Shown: in pieces, positions 3,211 to 26,558 of the stretch
Numbering within the stretch: the first letter of the stretch is position 1
Layout of the letters: the number at the start of each line of letters is the position of its first letter
Assembly: GCA_037143335.1 (NCBI GenBank)
Contig: JBAWZA010000010.1
Location: forward strand, 25,326 to 89,325
Length of the DNA: 64,000 bases
Direction: 5' to 3'
Source of the DNA: a bacterium
GTDB taxonomy: Bacteria; Bacteroidota; Ignavibacteria; Palsa-1295
The notes under the pieces: generated by a model
Database searches by the model: none
What the model was told of the DNA's origin: nothing
The model's input: the letters and a program-made list of their open reading frames with translations, nothing else
Position numbers and translations under genes: made by a program

Positions 3211-4566
3211 ATGCAAATTGTCGCTCATACACTCGGTTGCAAACTCAATAGCGCAGAAACTTCTGCTATTGTCGAGCAATTTCGCCTACGGAATTGGGAA
3301 ATCACCCAACTTGGCACCGATACCGATGTTTTTGTCTTGAATACCTGTTCGGTCACCCAAAATGCCGAAAGAGAGTGCCGACAGATCATCAGACAAATTC
3401 TCCGCAAGAACCCGAAAGCCTTTGTTGCAGTAACTGGTTGTTATGCCCAACTCCGACCTGAAGAGATAGCAAGTATTGAGGGAGTGGATGTTATCCTTGG
3501 GGCGAAGGAGAAGTTCGATCTTTTCTCTCACGTTACTTCATTCGAGAAATTACCCGCGCCAGTTATTTTCTCCTCACCGATTGACGAAGCAACAGAGTTT
3601 CATATTGCCGCCACTTCTGACACAAACGAGCGAACCCGCGCATTCTTGAAGGTGCAAGATGGATGCGATTATACCTGTTCGTTCTGTACAATCCCACAAG
3701 CACGTGGAGAGTCGAGATCAACCTCAATTGAGAAGATTCTTGCCGAGGCGCGCATGCTATCTGCAGAGGGATTCCGCGAGATCATTCTCTCTGGTGTGAA
3801 TGTCGGAGATTTCGGCAGAAAAATAGGGACAAGTTTTTATGAGCTCGTTCAGGCAATCGAGAATGACCAAGCAATTGAATCACGCATCCGTATCAGCTCG
3901 ATTGAACCAAATTTATTATCGAACGAAATAATCGAGTTAGTTGCAAAATCGGCGAAGTTCTGTCCGCATTTTCATATTCCACTCCAATCAGGATCTGCTA
4001 ATGTATTACGTGCGATGCAAAGACGTTACACAGCAGATTTGTATCGCTCCCGAATTGATCGAATCAAAGAACTTCTGCCACAAGCAGCCATTGGTGCGGA
4101 TGTTATAGTCGGATTTCCTGGAGAGACGGATGAAGAATTTGAGGAGACGTACAAATTCTTAAGTGAGCTTGACATAGCATACTTGCACGTATTTACCTAT
4201 AGCGAACGCCCCGATACCAAAGCTACGTTGATGGGAAATCGTGTGATACCAACAAAACGCAAAGAACGTAATGCACGCTTGCGAATTCTCTCAGAAAAGA
4301 AGCGACACGAATTCTTCCGTTCGCAGCTTGGTAAGACTGTTGAAGTGTTATTGGAGCCAAGTGACTCAGCGTTACTCAATTCAGGACGAGTCGAAGGCTT
4401 TTCCGAAAACTATGTTCGTGTCTCCGTCAATAAATCCGAAGTAACTTCTGGGGCAGAACTTGTTCGCGTTTCTCTAACAGAAGTAGCAGGCGATCATGTT
4501 TGCGGCGACATTTCTGAAGTGCTTACCCGACGTGCTTATGAGTCACTATTGCCAATTATAGGATAG
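3211..4566 (+). CDS. mtaB: tRNA (t6A37) methylthiotransferase MtaB (radical SAM, MiaB-like)
   Basis: N-terminal MQIVAHTLGCKLNSAE. Radical-SAM CDYTCSFC motif. C-terminal TRAM-like region. The ORF-track start at 2911 is an unstopped upstream extension that overlaps the convergent gene. ATG at 3211 was chosen. Confidence 0.8.
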   Translation: MQIVAHTLGCKLNSAETSAIVEQFRLRNWEITQLGTDTDVFVLNTCSVTQNAERECRQIIRQILRKNPKAFVAVTGCYAQLRPEEIASIEGVDVILGAKEKFDLFSHVTSFEKLPAPVIFSSPIDEATEFHIAATSDTNERTRAFLKVQDGCDYTCSFCTIPQARGESRSTSIEKILAEARMLSAEGFREIILSGVNVGDFGRKIGTSFYELVQAIENDQAIESRIRISSIEPNLLSNEIIELVAKSAKFCPHFHIPLQSGSANVLRAMQRRYTADLYRSRIDRIKELLPQAAIGADVIVGFPGETDEEFEETYKFLSELDIAYLHVFTYSERPDTKATLMGNRVIPTKRKERNARLRILSEKKRHEFFRSQLGKTVEVLLEPSDSALLNSGRVEGFSENYVRVSVNKSEVTSGAELVRVSLTEVAGDHVCGDISEVLTRRAYESLLPIIG

Positions 4567-4570
4567 AAGC

Positions 4571-5839
4571 TTGTTCGATAAACTGACTCTAAACCTACAA
4601 AACCGGCGCACCGAGTGGTTGCTACTACTCGGAGTCTCGGTTGTCATTTTCATAATCCAAATTCTCACCCTCCGCCCACCAGTTGGTATTGGTGAGCCAT
4701 ATTGGATTGCGAAACATTTAGCCGCAGGCGAAGGATTTATCTATCCCTATCCATTTGACTCTGCATGGCTTCCAACCTGTTACATTCCACCGCTTTACGT
4801 ATGGTTTCATGCGGCAATTATTGGCATTGGAGGGGGATTAGTTGTTACGCAGATAGCTGGGTTAATATTCTTTCATGCCGCAAATTTTTTCTTCTACAAA
4901 TTTTTTCAACGCATTACCACAAAAACTATCGCCTTCATTGGTTTTTGCGGATTGGCGTGTTACGTTCCGCTGTGGCTCATCTCGCAAAAGCCGGATCCGG
5001 ATGGACTTAATTTATTACTCATTGCGCTCACGATACTCACCCTCGACCGCATAATCTCTAAGCAGAAAATTTCATCAATGTGGAATTGGGTGACTCTTGG
5101 AATTCTCTTTGGTTTACAAATTCTTGTTCGCCCTGATATTTTAATGGGTATCGTCCTCTTCGGCTTGTGGTTACTTTTTTATTCAGGCAAGTATTGGTTG
5201 CGCAACGGAATTCGATTCTGTTTTTCTGTAGCGATAGCACTTGCGATGGTCTTGCCGTGGACAATCCGCAATTATAATACATTTCATTCGTTCGTACTGG
5301 TAAGTTCAAATTCAGGGTTCAATTTTTTCATCGGGAATAATCCGATTGCAACAGGGGAATTTCAGCAAGGAGTCAGTAATGCCGAGAGTCAACGAATGGA
5401 TACTGCCCGCACAGAGTTTTACCGAGTACATACCTCGCCTGTCGAAAGAGATTCGTATCTATTCAAAGTAGGAAAGGATTGGGTCTTGGAGCATCCAGGA
5501 GATGCGCTTATCCTCGGTATGAAAAAATGTTATTATCATTGGTGGCAGCGGGAGTACGCTGGTGGCAGTATCGCCGCATCTGCTTGGATGGTGACGGGTT
5601 ATAAATTTATTTCGATCTTTCTATTGACCTTCGGATTCATCGGACTTTTTAGTTTGCGCTCTAAAAGTAGCCGTGCGTTGCTCATGACATTATTTTTGTA
5701 TTCAACCTTGATCTCTGTTATTTTCTTTACACAATCACGGCACCGTGCAATCAAGATTGACCCGTATCTTGTTACATTGTCTATCATCGGTGTTGGTGCG
5801 ACACTCAAAAAAATTAAGCGCAACGAATCAAAGCAATAG
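4571..5839 (+). CDS. polytopic membrane protein, putative GT39/GT83-like glycosyltransferase
   Basis: 422 aa with more than 10 predicted TM helices. TTG start 4 nt after the mtaB stop. Architecture resembles ArnT/PMT-type lipid-linked sugar transferases. Confidence 0.35.
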   Translation: MFDKLTLNLQNRRTEWLLLLGVSVVIFIIQILTLRPPVGIGEPYWIAKHLAAGEGFIYPYPFDSAWLPTCYIPPLYVWFHAAIIGIGGGLVVTQIAGLIFFHAANFFFYKFFQRITTKTIAFIGFCGLACYVPLWLISQKPDPDGLNLLLIALTILTLDRIISKQKISSMWNWVTLGILFGLQILVRPDILMGIVLFGLWLLFYSGKYWLRNGIRFCFSVAIALAMVLPWTIRNYNTFHSFVLVSSNSGFNFFIGNNPIATGEFQQGVSNAESQRMDTARTEFYRVHTSPVERDSYLFKVGKDWVLEHPGDALILGMKKCYYHWWQREYAGGSIAASAWMVTGYKFISIFLLTFGFIGLFSLRSKSSRALLMTLFLYSTLISVIFFTQSRHRAIKIDPYLVTLSIIGVGATLKKIKRNESKQ

Positions 5840-19649: not shown

Positions 19650-19723
19650 AAAATAAAATTCCTGAGTAGCTCAGTTGGTTAGAGCATCTGACTGTTAATC
19701 AGAGGGTCGCAGGTTCAAGTCCT
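19650..19723 (+). tRNA. tRNA-Asn (anticodon GTT)
   Basis: Cloverleaf folded by hand. Acceptor TCCTGAG/CTCAGGA. D-arm GCTC-AGTTGGTTA-GAGC. Anticodon stem TCTGA/TCAGA with loop CTGTTAA. T-arm GCAGG-TTCAAGT-CCTGC. Confidence 0.85.
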
Positions 19724-19756
19724 GCCTCAGGAGCAACAAACATCTATTTTGATCCA

Positions 19757-19787
19757 AGCCTGCGACAATCTCGCGGGCTATTTTTTT
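19757..19787 (+). terminator. rho-independent terminator after tRNA-Asn
   Basis: AGCCTGCGA-caatc-TCGCGGGCT followed by TTTTTTTT. Confidence 0.5.
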
Positions 19788-19859
19788 GTAGTTTGCCAAC
19801 GTTACCTCGCACAATTCGTATCTTCGTAAGACAATTTATCACCAACCACATTTATCGTT

Positions 19860-20396
19860 ATGAAATCACTATCGTTACCTATCGCATTGCTCGCTATATT
19901 TTGTTTAGCAAGCTGTGCAAAGAAAGAAAGCCCTGCCATGATAGCCAAAGCCAGAGCGGATTCTATGGAAACTGCATACAAAGCATTCATGACTGCTTGG
20001 GACGCGGGAAAAGTTGAGGAGTTTGATAAATACATTTCTCCAAACTGCCTTGACAAATACGAAATGCTCCCTGGCATGAAGTCCGGATTAGCTGGCTTGA
20101 AGGAAATGGCACTGATGGTAAAAACCGGATGTCCTGACAATAAGACAACGATAAAAAGTATGTATGCCGACTCGAATGTTCTCAACGTCGCCTACACCGA
20201 CACTGGGATGAACACTGGACCGATGGGAGGATACCCAGCGTCAAACGAAAAAATGACAGGCTCAGGCAACTATCGCGTCAATTGGGTTAATGGAAAATTT
20301 GAAGACCTCTCCGGCCTCATGGATGGCGCAAAGAGCAGGGTGAGCACCAGAAAAATGATTGAAGACTTCGCGCATCCAGAAGCGAAGAAGAATTAG
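19860..20396 (+). CDS. hypothetical lipoprotein (NTF2/SnoaL-like fold suspected)
   Basis: Signal peptide plus lipobox LASC. 178 aa. No recognisable catalytic motif. Confidence 0.4.
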   Translation: MKSLSLPIALLAIFCLASCAKKESPAMIAKARADSMETAYKAFMTAWDAGKVEEFDKYISPNCLDKYEMLPGMKSGLAGLKEMALMVKTGCPDNKTTIKSMYADSNVLNVAYTDTGMNTGPMGGYPASNEKMTGSGNYRVNWVNGKFEDLSGLMDGAKSRVSTRKMIEDFAHPEAKKN

Positions 20397-20407
20397 ACTA
20401 TACATTA

Positions 20408-20440
20408 CCGCCCACGATTTCAATCGTGGGCGGGATTGAT
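20408..20440. repeat. REP-like GC-rich palindromic element, copy A
   Basis: CCGCCCACG-atttcaat-CGTGGGCGG-GATTGAT. Same element as at 25421..25454 (inverted) and 25523..25552. Confidence 0.55.
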
Positions 20441-20551
20441 AATCGCAGAGAGCCCCACTATATTCCCGCGCTCGCGGAATGACGACGCAGAAAGGGAAAG
20501 AAGAGGGGGAGCATAAAAAAACTATTAGAAGATTTTTTTGTTAATTAAAAA

Positions 20552-20941
20552 ATGGAAAGTAATTTAACCCCTGGTGCAGAGACGTCTAAACTACGTTTTT
20601 TTCTTGATGGGAACGCTGGCCTTACGAAGTCTCATAGAAAAGCACGGAAAGAAATTGCAAAAGTTCTTGCCGAATTCGGAATAAATGTAACTAGTTTACC
20701 AAGTCAAAGAACATTTGATTCATCAGAAATGACTCAATGGGAATATTGTAAAAAAGAAGGAAGAGTAATGATAACCCATAATTCAAATTATCTTCGTATT
20801 GCAGAAAAGGATTTGAATCATCCGGGACTTATTCATTGCAAAATAGAAATGCATTTCGCTGGCGAAATTGTTCTCGGCATATCTGAACTTTATAATGAAT
20901 TATCCCCTGGCGAAATGCGGGGGAAAATTCTTTATATGTAA
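20552..20941 (+). CDS. DUF5615-like PIN-fold (Mut7-C-like) putative nuclease/toxin, orphan
   Basis: 129 aa. RFFLDGN near the N-terminus matches the F-L-x-D-E-N start of DUF5615. EGRVMITHNSNY and NHPGLIHCKIE blocks follow. No DUF433 partner upstream. Confidence 0.45.
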   Translation: MESNLTPGAETSKLRFFLDGNAGLTKSHRKARKEIAKVLAEFGINVTSLPSQRTFDSSEMTQWEYCKKEGRVMITHNSNYLRIAEKDLNHPGLIHCKIEMHFAGEIVLGISELYNELSPGEMRGKILYM

Positions 20942-21203
20942 TTGCTTATAAGAAATTCAGGCGCACTCGAACGAAGATGCACAACTGCGAACGACGAGAG
21001 GGGAATTATTCCCTTCTCTTTTTTCTCAATTCCCTATCATATTGAATCGCTTCAAATTGTTTGGATGATATTAGTCGATCAATGTCAGAAAAAAAATCAT
21101 TTTCTACAATTTGTTTTTGTCTAAGGGACATTGACTTATTTATTTTCTCGATGTGTTCAGCGCGATCATTTAACCACCATGGAAAATTTTCGGGGATAAT
21201 GTA

Positions 21204-21890
21204 TTATTTTCCCTGAATTTTTAATGATCCTTGCATATCAATTTTCGAACCTTCCCAAGGGTTATGTCTTGATGTGAAACCCAGCAAGACAATACCGCAC
21301 ATATTTAAATATATGAATCCTTCTTTCTTTGTACTCCCAAAAGTAAAATCTGTTGATCTCATTAAATAATTATTAATGTTATCGGCGGTCTCAATGGAAC
21401 CAGTGGATTCAATACCGCCCATCAATACCATATGTTGTTCTGTCATCCCAATATCATTTCTTTCTCCTAGCAAAAATTGACGCCACGTTTTTTCAGCTAA
21501 CCTCAATTTCTGAGCATGGAAAAGAGATAACCCTTTATGCCCATTTTCTTTTTTCATCATCGTAAGGATTCTCCAGGTTACTGAAGTCGCAAATTTTAGC
21601 AGCCATTCGCCATACTCAACATCTTGATTATCGTGATTTTGGTAAGGATAGAAAACTTTTTCAGCGTATTTTTTTTCGGACCTTCCAAAAAGTTGTTCGC
21701 AGTCGAAACAGAGTAAGTAGTCTTTGTACCCGTCTTGTGCCCTTTGATTAATTGCCCGAGAATGTCTAAGATAACCAGTAGCTGAAGTTTTTTTTTGCCA
21801 TAGGTTAATAAATTTGGGAATGATATGGCTCTCCTGAAGTTCTTTAACCTCTCGACAAAGTGCACATGTTCCAATATTTTCTTTTGCCAT
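21204..21890 (-). CDS. HNH-motif endonuclease-like protein with an uncharacterised 150-aa C-terminal domain
   Basis: N-terminal CALCREVKELQESHIIPKF...N...DYLLCFDCEQ matches the CxxC-[D/E]HIIP-N-LLCxxC HNH pattern. The remainder has no recognisable motif. ORF-track start 21923; the MAKEN Met at 21890 is preferred. Confidence 0.45.
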   Translation of the reverse strand: MAKENIGTCALCREVKELQESHIIPKFINLWQKKTSATGYLRHSRAINQRAQDGYKDYLLCFDCEQLFGRSEKKYAEKVFYPYQNHDNQDVEYGEWLLKFATSVTWRILTMMKKENGHKGLSLFHAQKLRLAEKTWRQFLLGERNDIGMTEQHMVLMGGIESTGSIETADNINNYLMRSTDFTFGSTKKEGFIYLNMCGIVLLGFTSRHNPWEGSKIDMQGSLKIQGK

Positions 21891-21930
21891 ATTTCGATAA
21901 CCCCTGAAACTCCTACCCCCCATTTTACGT

Positions 21931-21957
21931 TTAGCACTCCCACTAAATGAGTGCTAA
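21931..21957. promoter_or_regulatory. CIRCE operator (HrcA binding site) for groES-groEL
   Basis: Exact TTAGCACTC-N9-GAGTGCTAA, about 80 bp upstream of the groES ATG. Confidence 0.85.
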
Positions 21958-22037: not shown

Positions 22038-22337
22038 ATGAATCTAACACCATTACATGACCGCCTCATCGTCCGGGCTGCTGCTGCGGCGGAGGTCACT
22101 AAGGGAGGAATTATCCTTCCCGATACAGCTCAGGAAAAGCCACAGCAGGGCGAAGTTCTTGCTGTCGGAACCGGCAAAATTGACGACAACGGCAAGACAT
22201 TGCCGATGGCAGTGAAGGTCGGCGATACCGTCCTTTACGGAAAATACTCAGGCACCGAAATCTCAGTTGATGGAGAAGAAGTTCTCATCATGAGAGAGTC
22301 GGATGTTTTTGCAATCGTAGGGAAAGGGAAGAAGTAG
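22038..22337 (+). CDS. groES: co-chaperonin GroES
   Basis: 99 aa. LHDRLIVR...[22 protein letters not shown]. Confidence 0.95.
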
Positions 22338-22486: not shown

Positions 22487-24139
<1,653 letters not shown>

Positions 24140-24249: not shown

Positions 24250-24804
24250 ATGAGAAAATATTTTTCCATTTTTCTATGTGTTTTATTTTCGAGTTGTGCA
24301 ACGACGCGACTAAATTCAGTTCATACTGGAAATCATTCTACCTATATGAAAATTCTCGTATTTGCTGATTATGAAGATATTGGACAACGCAAAAACTACG
24401 AACAGGCACTTTTAGAGGAATTGTCAGATAAAGGAGTTCAAATTTTTATGAGCATTGATTATTTTCCCCCGTTAAAAGAATATACCGACCAAGAGAGAGA
24501 AGCAAATAAAATTAGCCTTGGCTATACAGCTGTTTTATTTCTTGAGCCAAAAGGAAGTAATACATCCACTCATTCGGAAGCTTACAGGAATTGGTTTGGT
24601 GGAGTTTCTGCTGATACTCATGAAAGCCTCGACGGCGTGTATACCATTGCCACTCTTACTGACTTAACTTCAAAGGAACATGTCTATAAAGCTACAATCT
24701 ATACTTCACTGGACAGCAGATATACACAGATGAACGAAGTTAGAAGCTCGATGGCAAAAAAAATTGCCGACGATATGTCTGATAACGGATTTTTCAATAA
24801 ATAG
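24250..24804 (+). CDS. hypothetical lipoprotein
   Basis: Signal peptide plus lipobox LFSSC. 184 aa. AT-rich codon usage. Confidence 0.45.
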   Translation: MRKYFSIFLCVLFSSCATTRLNSVHTGNHSTYMKILVFADYEDIGQRKNYEQALLEELSDKGVQIFMSIDYFPPLKEYTDQEREANKISLGYTAVLFLEPKGSNTSTHSEAYRNWFGGVSADTHESLDGVYTIATLTDLTSKEHVYKATIYTSLDSRYTQMNEVRSSMAKKIADDMSDNGFFNK

Positions 24805-24809
24805 CAAAC

Positions 24810-25322
24810 ATGTGTAGTATTGATTGGGCAGCCACAGGTGCTATGCTTGGAGGTATCGCGACTGCGATTTATGCGCTCTTCACTTTATTTCTTTGGCTAA
24901 CTGCAAAAAAAGATTTAGATCAGACGAAAAAATTGCACCTCGCAGATTCAAGACCTTGGCTTGAAGCACAACTTATAGCTGTAAAGTATAGAGGAGTTGA
25001 TCCTCTGGATTATATGCAGTCTGGAGTACAAGTAATGGCCTATAATCATGGTAAAAGTCCTGCGAGAATTGTTTCATGGCAAGTTGGATGGTCCGATGAC
25101 GGAATAAATAAATTTTGGTCACCCAGATCTAAGCAAACTGTTATCATGCCACATTCTTCAATGGATGAAGTTTTTCCAGTTACTGAGATTCGGGCAAATG
25201 AAAGGCGTTTGTATATAGTTAACCTCACTTACCATTCAGGGGCAAGCGAGAATTATGTAACAACTGTAGAATACATTTATCACCTCCGAACATGGGAGCA
25301 AGGTGCTGTTATATACACATAG
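24810..25322 (+). CDS. hypothetical membrane-anchored protein
   Basis: 170 aa. One N-terminal TM helix. Lies 5 nt after the previous gene, so likely co-transcribed. Confidence 0.4.
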   Translation: MCSIDWAATGAMLGGIATAIYALFTLFLWLTAKKDLDQTKKLHLADSRPWLEAQLIAVKYRGVDPLDYMQSGVQVMAYNHGKSPARIVSWQVGWSDDGINKFWSPRSKQTVIMPHSSMDEVFPVTEIRANERRLYIVNLTYHSGASENYVTTVEYIYHLRTWEQGAVIYT

Positions 25323-25420: not shown

Positions 25421-25454
25421 AATTATCAAACCCGCCCACGGTTGAAACCGTGGG
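25421..25454. repeat. REP-like palindromic element, copy B (inverted orientation)
   Basis: ATTATCAAACCCGCCCACGG-ttgaaa-CCGTGGGC. Its reverse complement reads GCCCACGGTTTCAACCGTGGGCGGGTTTGATAAT, nearly identical to copy A. Confidence 0.55.
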
Positions 25455-25522
25455 CTAATATGTTTTCATCGGTTTCACCGATTCGGGGAATAAGAGTCGC
25501 CTTTGGCGACGGCAACAGATTA

Positions 25523-25552
25523 GCCCACCAATTCATTGGTGGGCGGGATTCG
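25523..25552. repeat. REP-like palindromic element, copy C
   Basis: GCCCACC-aattcatt-GGTGGGC-GGGATT. Shares the GTGGGCGGGATT 12-mer with copy A. Stem base pairs are compensatory (CACG/CGTG versus CACC/GGTG). Confidence 0.5.
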
Positions 25553-26450: not shown

Positions 26451-26558
26451 TCTCCGTGCCACTCCGTGAGGTACTCCGTGTTCCTCCGTGGTTCATAATA
26501 AAGTATCGAGGAATTAACCACGGAGGGGCACGGAGTTCGTCACGGAGGAACGCGGAGT
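26451..26558. repeat. 108-bp inverted repeat carrying 4+4 helically phased CTCCGTG / CACGGAG heptamers
   Basis: Left arm tCTCCGTGccaCTCCGTGaggtaCTCCGTGttcCTCCGTGg. 26-bp AT-rich centre. Right arm cCACGGAGgggCACGGAGttcgtCACGGAGgaacgCGGAGt. Confidence 0.55.

Follow-up and report, generated by a model that had tools for sequence, protein, structure and literature searches.

Next to the groES regulatory region of an Ignavibacteria contig (lineage Palsa-1295, GenBank JBAWZA010000010.1), a stretch of low guanine-plus-cytosine (GC) content at positions 20400-21930 is probably the eroded remnant of a variable accessory hot-spot, with two unrelated survivors: a gene for a PIN-like DUF5615 protein and, convergent to it, a nonsense-cut gene of a family marked by a CxxC-SHIIP-CxxCE motif. 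Positions refer to the window, by which we mean the whole 64-kb stretch of DNA that was analysed; it comes from a metagenome-assembled contig of 111.6 kb (ENA ERZ4222710 NODE_76) and has a coverage of ~7.8x, a value taken from the contig name. An initial annotation, made from the sequence of this DNA, had described a tRNA-Asn(GTT) gene with its terminator, followed by a gene for a lipoprotein, a palindrome, a DUF5615 gene and, convergent to the latter, an HNH-motif gene. All of these features are present, the last as a gene with a CxxC/His motif. The initial annotation had also proposed that the two last-named genes form a small anti-phage or addiction module. In our reading the locus should not be treated as a two-nuclease defence module. 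The features of the low-GC islet are as follows.

20403-20438, no strand assigned: repetitive extragenic palindromic (REP)-like hairpin bordering the low-GC islet on its left, recognised as a palindrome and by DNA folding
20552-20941, plus strand: orphan gene for a DUF5615 (COG4634-type, PIN-like) toxin homologue of 129 amino acids, matched by Pfam DUF5615
20976-20993, no strand assigned: core of a short intergenic repeat, present as a single, shorter copy between the window's two genes and as two copies in the related contig L001
20996-21018, called on the plus strand: terminator-like hairpin between the convergent genes, overlapping the stop of the full-length CxxC-SHIIP-CxxCE frame at 21006-21008
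21006-21890, minus strand: nonsense-interrupted full-length frame of the CxxC-SHIIP-CxxCE family, defined by homologue alignment and a match to phrog_26326
21204-21206, minus strand: in-frame TAA, located by codon alignment with the closest relatives
21204-21923, minus strand: convergent open reading frame (ORF) of 239 amino acids with CxxC...SHIIP...CxxCE, taken from the ORF list
21891-21928, minus strand: short leader of 38 nucleotides (nt), which aligns with the leader of a 225-amino acid gene in L001

The islet stands out by its composition. The window has a mean GC content of 0.443 (standard deviation 0.02 for stretches of 1.5 kb), whereas that of 20401-21930 is 0.372, which lies at the 0.3rd percentile of such stretches and holds the window minimum; the DUF5615 gene and the CxxC gene both have a GC content of 0.359. 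The gene content at the same place beside groES also differs in the related contig L001. These observations support the view that 20400-21930 is an accessory, compositionally foreign islet, and in this respect the initial annotation is borne out.

DUF5615 corresponds to the COG4634/Mut7-C group of PIN-like domains, whose members are predicted to be toxins that pair with antitoxins of the DUF433 (COG2442) family (PMC2701414, PMC5499597). The PIN-DUF433 pairing has been predicted to be a toxin-antitoxin system (PMC2701414), and COG4634 has been listed as a potential toxin (PMC5499597). As in this predicted type II system, the window product passes the Pfam cut-off for the toxin (PF18480, 26.7 bits against a cut-off of 23.8, E = 5.4e-6, residues 34-115). 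A phmmer search returned 85 relatives at E <= 1e-3, and the product aligns end to end with 45 relatives of ~110 amino acids, an alignment from which the following column counts were taken. The active site is presumed to consist of a D-E pair that follows strand 1, one central D and the motif T-x-D-x-D. Here the window copy retains D19 and carries G at E20 (E in 44 of the 45 relatives), E at D59 and N at D77 (D in 45 of 45 at both positions), and N at D79 (D in 40 of 45). It further differs from the known system by a 9-amino acid insertion past the first strand and a 12-amino acid N-terminal extension. The set of acidic residues expected of a DUF5615/COG4634 toxin is incomplete in the window copy, which is probably catalytically dead.

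The DUF433 antitoxin gene that a type II pair requires next to the toxin gene, upstream of it and usually overlapping it, is lacking in the window and present in L001. Upstream of the window's DUF5615 gene there is no DUF433 or other antitoxin ORF (no ORF of at least 27 amino acids occurs in 20397-20551), and a tblastn search of the window with the DUF433 protein of L001 gave nothing significant and no remnant. The gene is an orphan, as the initial annotation had recognised, and on the evidence of its sequence it would encode a probably inactive protein rather than half of a working toxin-antitoxin pair. Inactivation of this kind would be expected of a toxin that outlives the loss of its antitoxin.

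The comparison on the groES side rests on a JGI contig (L001) that is 100% identical to a Logan contig from another sample (L172); these two identical assemblies represent a single related lineage, and their coverage ends before the tRNA side of the locus. Nucleotide identity between L001 and the window is 80% in groES, and identity in the CxxC gene is 83.6%. Reading from groES, L001 carries the controlling inverted repeat of chaperone expression (CIRCE)-type repeat and leader, the 225-amino acid gene, an intact 296-amino acid CxxC-family gene, a repeat (A), a 95-amino acid ORF with an Unstab_antitox gene, a PemK gene with a 66-amino acid gene, a second repeat (B), and then DUF5615 and DUF433 before the contig ends. 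The last two genes overlap by 1 nt and form a canonical DUF433-DUF5615 pair, in which the toxin retains DEN and THDRD; the window copy shares 46% amino acid and 72% nucleotide identity with it. The CxxC and DUF5615 genes of L001 lie 1.46 kb apart with two toxin-antitoxin pairs in between, and we found no remnants of these toxin-antitoxin genes in the window.

The two pairs in L001 are flanked by repeats A and B (2333-2427 and 3656-3779), direct repeats of two 44-nt blocks each that are 95% and 93% identical, and these may be recombination substrates for the gain and loss of cassettes. We also considered them as integron-like attC sites and rejected this reading, as their folds are no more stable than those of shuffled sequences (z = -0.2 and -0.1). 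The 225-amino acid gene (L001 752-1429, equivalent to L172 466-1143) overlaps the start of the CxxC-family gene by 4 nt, has no family match, and occurs neither in the window nor in any of the other family contexts that were examined; it may be a lineage-specific partner. Since the window leader at 21891-21928 aligns with the leader of this gene, the two loci differ on this side by a clean presence or absence of the 225-amino acid ORF.

Alignment with its homologues indicates that the convergent 239-amino acid ORF is not a complete gene and that it is a nonsense-cut copy of a gene for a protein of ~300 amino acids. The TAA is codon 240 of a 305-codon frame, which then stays open for 64 codons, to 21006, where the terminator-like hairpin is located. 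When the 305-codon read-through was used as a query, 44 proteins were found, nearly all of 283-334 amino acids, and homologues of 290-310 amino acids cover 92-96% of it; the closest two are 86% and 78% identical and have 296 and 294 amino acids. In the column of the stop both of these relatives have Lys, with AAA or AAG against TAA, so that the stop is a single A-to-T change, with no indel. Reading through the stop extends the match to phrog_26326, an otherwise unnamed family of ~300 amino acids to which PHROGs assigns no function, from profile positions 9-223 to 9-302 of 303 (residues 14-300, E = 4.6e-49). The window copy thus matches this family over its full length and keeps the invariant C, SH, C-x2-C-E, W and R; beyond the stop lie the invariant or near-invariant P244, S266, Q269, S287 and D296. 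Unlike members of the family, it is cut by the TAA and has no uninterrupted reading frame, and relative to its closest relative it also lacks the 225-amino acid gene upstream. Because the homologues begin at the position of Met12, the real start is likely to be the ATG at 21890 rather than 21923, and NCBI annotates a 228-amino acid product from this ATG.

We compared the changes on either side of the stop in a three-way alignment. The window and the L001 branch each carry 7 amino acid changes of their own in the 65 positions past the stop, and 9 and 10, respectively, in the 228 positions that precede it. Relaxed constraint past the stop codon was not detectable, at the low power that 65 codons afford. 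With no excess of changes after the stop, the mutation would be recent, or else the TAA would be an error or a minority allele.

We propose that the locus bordering the upstream region of groES would collect toxin-antitoxin cassettes together with other mobile-element genes. In the window, the DUF5615 toxin gene would have lost its DUF433 antitoxin and then had its conserved acidic residues replaced, while a recent Lys-to-stop mutation would remove the C-terminal helical quarter of the CxxC protein. The toxin-antitoxin pairs were probably lost from the window by recombination between direct repeats, and their gain in the relative is equally possible. Such a locus would be an ordinary case of erosion at a chromosomal hot-spot of toxin-antitoxin and mobile genes, in which the loss of an antitoxin is followed by loss of acidic residues from the toxin, cassettes located between repeats disappear, and nonsense mutations arise. 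Toxin-antitoxin loci in decay are common, as are pseudogenes within accessory islets, and the interest of this one is accordingly low.

Several points weigh against this account. It draws on one lineage only, so that loss in the window and gain in the relative are not separable. The loss of DUF5615 activity is read from substitutions, and COG4634 members differ in the number of active-site residues that they retain (PMC5499597). The TAA rests on coverage of ~7.8x and on two agreeing assemblies that may share reads, and the frame past it is open and conserved, as it would also be if the gene were intact and the TAA a miscalled base or a minority allele. The account is least certain on whether the population truly carries this stop.

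If the TAA were such an error or minority allele, the locus would hold an intact CxxC gene of ~294 amino acids, expressed from the leader by the groES upstream region, beside a DUF5615 gene that would still be degenerate. The 64 open codons without excess window-specific change, the low coverage, and the terminator at the end of the long frame all agree with this possibility, which we nevertheless consider unlikely. A contig assembled from SRR12676966 (Logan, L164) is 100% identical to the window over 3043 nt, the TAA at 21204-21206 included, and the ERZ4222710 and SRR12676966 assemblies come from different pipelines. Substitution errors are, moreover, uncommon in short-read consensus sequence. 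It is far less probable that the CxxC gene is functional despite a genuine stop, either by read-through or when split into a 228-amino acid N-terminal protein and a 41-amino acid peptide translated separately, starting at the ATG at 21131. Conservation does extend over the downstream frame, and an ATG-initiated 41-amino acid ORF does exist at 21006-21131, but TAA also terminates the window's DUF5615 gene and is thus used here as an ordinary stop, no split member occurs among the homologues listed (nearly all of ~290-310 amino acids), the 41-amino acid ORF would leave out 23 conserved codons including that of the invariant P244, and no read-through signal turned up, although no search was aimed at one.

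The family to which the interrupted gene belongs is the useful by-product of this analysis, and its interest is modest. A profile search found 192 members at E <= 0.001, so that the family has at least 192 members in Bacteria and Archaea; 120 of them were listed. Nearly all of these 120 have 290-310 amino acids, and their source names are "hypothetical protein" save for two ("HNH endonuclease" in UniRef and "uncharacterized protein YlaI" at JGI). One listed member contains a SEC-C domain, and no other Pfam domain was found in any of them. Pfam contains no model of the family, nor does any Pfam model match the window protein. At the N-terminus, members share CxxC-x8-(E)SHIIP followed, ~35 residues on, by LLCxxCE; H33 does not vary in an alignment of 13 sequences and reaches a conservation of at least 90% when 41 members are compared. 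The residue directly behind the second CxxC is Glu throughout, where HNH nucleases would have a metal-binding His or Asn. In the predicted model, the His lies on a beta-hairpin and a helix begins at the second CxxC.

The initial annotation had counted two nuclease folds at this locus. The DUF5615 protein is assigned to its family by a Pfam match, and the resemblance of the CxxC protein to HNH nucleases is a sub-threshold one of motif. Matches to HNH_5 were found in 8 of the 41 members (best E = 4.2e-4), and the three that were inspected scored 11-15 bits against a cut-off of 27.5, over profile positions 1-21 or 1-22 of 56; NCBIfam HlpB matched the CxxC protein at E = 0.035. Across the window protein and the 41 members, no HNH-type Pfam model reached its curated threshold. 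The motif does resemble those of zinc-containing HNH and endonuclease VII proteins (HNH_5, PF14279; Endonuclease_7, PF02945) in having two Cys pairs that bracket a conserved His. It differs from them in being split by a conserved insertion of 35 residues and in the Glu that replaces the last His, and ~220 of the ~300 residues of the family have no counterpart in them. We therefore use "HNH-like zinc motif" as a lead and not as a classification, an HNH fold being not established on these comparisons. A Foldseek search of PDB and BFVD with the family model returned nothing at E <= 0.001, and a profile search of PDB sequences with the family returned nothing below E = 0.25; the fold of the family, predicted with confidence, appears to be unmatched among solved or viral structures.

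All family members whose surroundings were examined are solitary genes, carried by plasmids or genomic islands or located at prophage ends. The Fodinibius member (L165) lies beside integrases and a Mrr_cat/HEPN_Toprim gene, the L168 member has FRG and PIN genes nearby, another has a resolvase nearby, and the Burkholderia member (L174) is at a prophage end. Others are found on plasmids of Bacillus, Lysinibacillus and haloarchaea, and one is a single insertion amid metabolic genes. On L002, a second relative, an unrelated 320-amino acid gene precedes the CxxC-family gene; a REP-like element lies after it, as does a gene for a CopG antitoxin. No conserved partner gene was found: the neighbours in L001, L002 and L165-L168 are unrelated, the plasmid and chromosome contexts are solo, and none of the members examined has a DUF5615 neighbour. 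Phage genomes yielded only one partial match (32% identity over 34% of the query). Some members may lie in tRNA-targeted islands. In Cohnella (L166), a tRNA-Arg(cct) gene at 5677-5751 is located 250 nt upstream of the member. As a separate observation, the gap without called genes upstream of the member on L167 (5182-6000) translates to a motif that was read as tRNA-like (GTTRFELATSPTP), and ARAGORN finds no tRNA there.

Searches of PADLOC-DB 2.0 gave no match at E <= 1 for the three islet proteins, in keeping with the statement of the initial annotation that no recognised defence-system context is present. Across the 41 family members, the only PADLOC matches were to unrelated models, each in one member. 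It is tentatively possible, although we would not favour it, that the CxxC-SHIIP-CxxCE proteins serve mobile elements as a new kind of standalone nuclease or as a new defence protein of the abortive-infection type, combining a split, Glu-containing HNH-like zinc motif with a domain that has no known structural relative. Being widespread, without a Pfam model, structurally unmatched, carried on mobile elements and equipped with a conserved motif that resembles a metal site, the family is a reasonable candidate for a new domain-of-unknown-function entry.

These contexts also bear on the proposal of the initial annotation that DUF5615 and the convergent CxxC/His gene are a working two-nuclease anti-phage or addiction module acquired at tRNA-Asn. 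The two genes are adjacent and equally low in GC, and family members do occur in mobile, defence-like surroundings (L165, L168, L174), but we find such a module very improbable: in L001 the genes are separated by other toxin-antitoxin pairs and each has a neighbour of its own, members elsewhere have neither DUF5615 nor any other constant neighbour, neither window copy looks functional, given the replaced acidic residues of one and the nonsense codon of the other, PADLOC recognises neither, and there is neither an attachment (att) repeat nor an integrase. An eroded hot-spot with two unrelated survivors remains our preferred explanation. The features that flank it are listed below.

19660-19734, plus strand: tRNA-Asn(gtt), called by ARAGORN and by Rfam tRNA (74.9 bits)
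19757-19779, plus strand: terminator-like hairpin after the tRNA, with a 9-pair stem (6 GC pairs) and a T-run (tail ATTTTTTTGT)
19860-20396, plus strand: gene for a SnoaL-like (ester cyclase-type) lipoprotein of 178 amino acids (Pfam SnoaL, 1.4e-15)
21931-21957, no strand assigned: CIRCE-type inverted repeat TTAGCACTC-N9-GAGTGCTAA, read from the sequence upstream of groES
22038-22337, plus strand: groES, the conserved right flank (Pfam Cpn10)
22496-24139, after groES: groEL (Pfam Cpn60)

The 178-amino acid ORF has a lipobox-type N-terminus (LASC) and is named "ester cyclase" by NCBI. Its GC content of 0.456, against 0.439 for the GH57 gene, is native to the window, so that the AT-richness that the initial annotation had ascribed to all of these genes applies to ~20400-21930 and not to the lipoprotein gene. 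For the same reason, the islet of ~1.5 kb does not begin at the tRNA; the lipoprotein gene comes first. The 3' 24-mer of tRNA-Asn has no second copy in the window, with up to 3 mismatches allowed, and no integrase or recombinase Pfam families occur among the genes called in 10552-30941 of the window (20.4 kb). With no att repeat, no integrase and a native-GC gene between the tRNA and the low-GC stretch, a tRNA-integrated island, the setting that had been suggested for the islet, is not supported; tRNA-Asn flanks the locus, and a role as integration site is not demonstrable. Scans of genome and metagenome contigs with the GH57 protein found no close relative, the best being 40-42% identical among the matches listed. 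A neighbouring gene has a weak Pfam match to Por_Secre_tail, a sorting signal for type IX secretion.

At the other border, the inverted repeat at 21931-21957 is perfect and is also kept in L001. It marks the right edge of the islet, which abuts this regulatory region. It has the form of the CIRCE consensus, and a CIRCE-type operator upstream of groES would imply heat-shock control of the HrcA type.

Directly after groEL, at 24250-25322, there is a second low-GC patch with two ORFs, one lipoprotein-like (184 amino acids, GC 0.36) and one with a hydrophobic N-terminal stretch (170 amino acids, GC 0.40). Neither has a significant match in Pfam, NCBIfam, PHROGs or PADLOC. The patch may be another accessory insertion flanking groESL.

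The palindrome at the left edge of the islet (20403-20438) has 17-nt arms that are 88% complementary, and its fold has a z score of -4.9. It contains one of three copies of a GCCCAC-N10-GTGGGC hairpin, for which 0.01 would be expected in the window. A pattern search placed these copies, none with an assigned strand, as follows.

20410-20431: first copy, within the palindrome
25434-25455: second copy
25523-25544: third copy

Together they bracket the islet, groESL and the second low-GC patch. The second and third copies belong to a composite palindrome of ~115 nt (25431-25545; DNA fold z = -7.4), which is 76% identical to the element at 1937-2053 of L002, after the CxxC-family gene of that contig. 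The Rfam model Acido-Lenti-1 matches the copies in 25431-25545 at 30.1 and 27.5 bits, below its gathering score of 37 bits. Like REP elements and miniature inverted-repeat transposable elements (MITEs), the window hairpins are GC-rich, stable and recurrent in intergenic positions; unlike these, they have no associated transposase, and their copies were counted in the window only. Further along lies a self-complementary stretch of ~86 nt (26462-26547), which is 73% identical to its own reverse complement. It is flanked by a methyltransferase gene and, convergent to this, a radical-SAM/TRAM gene, and it probably terminates transcription in both directions.

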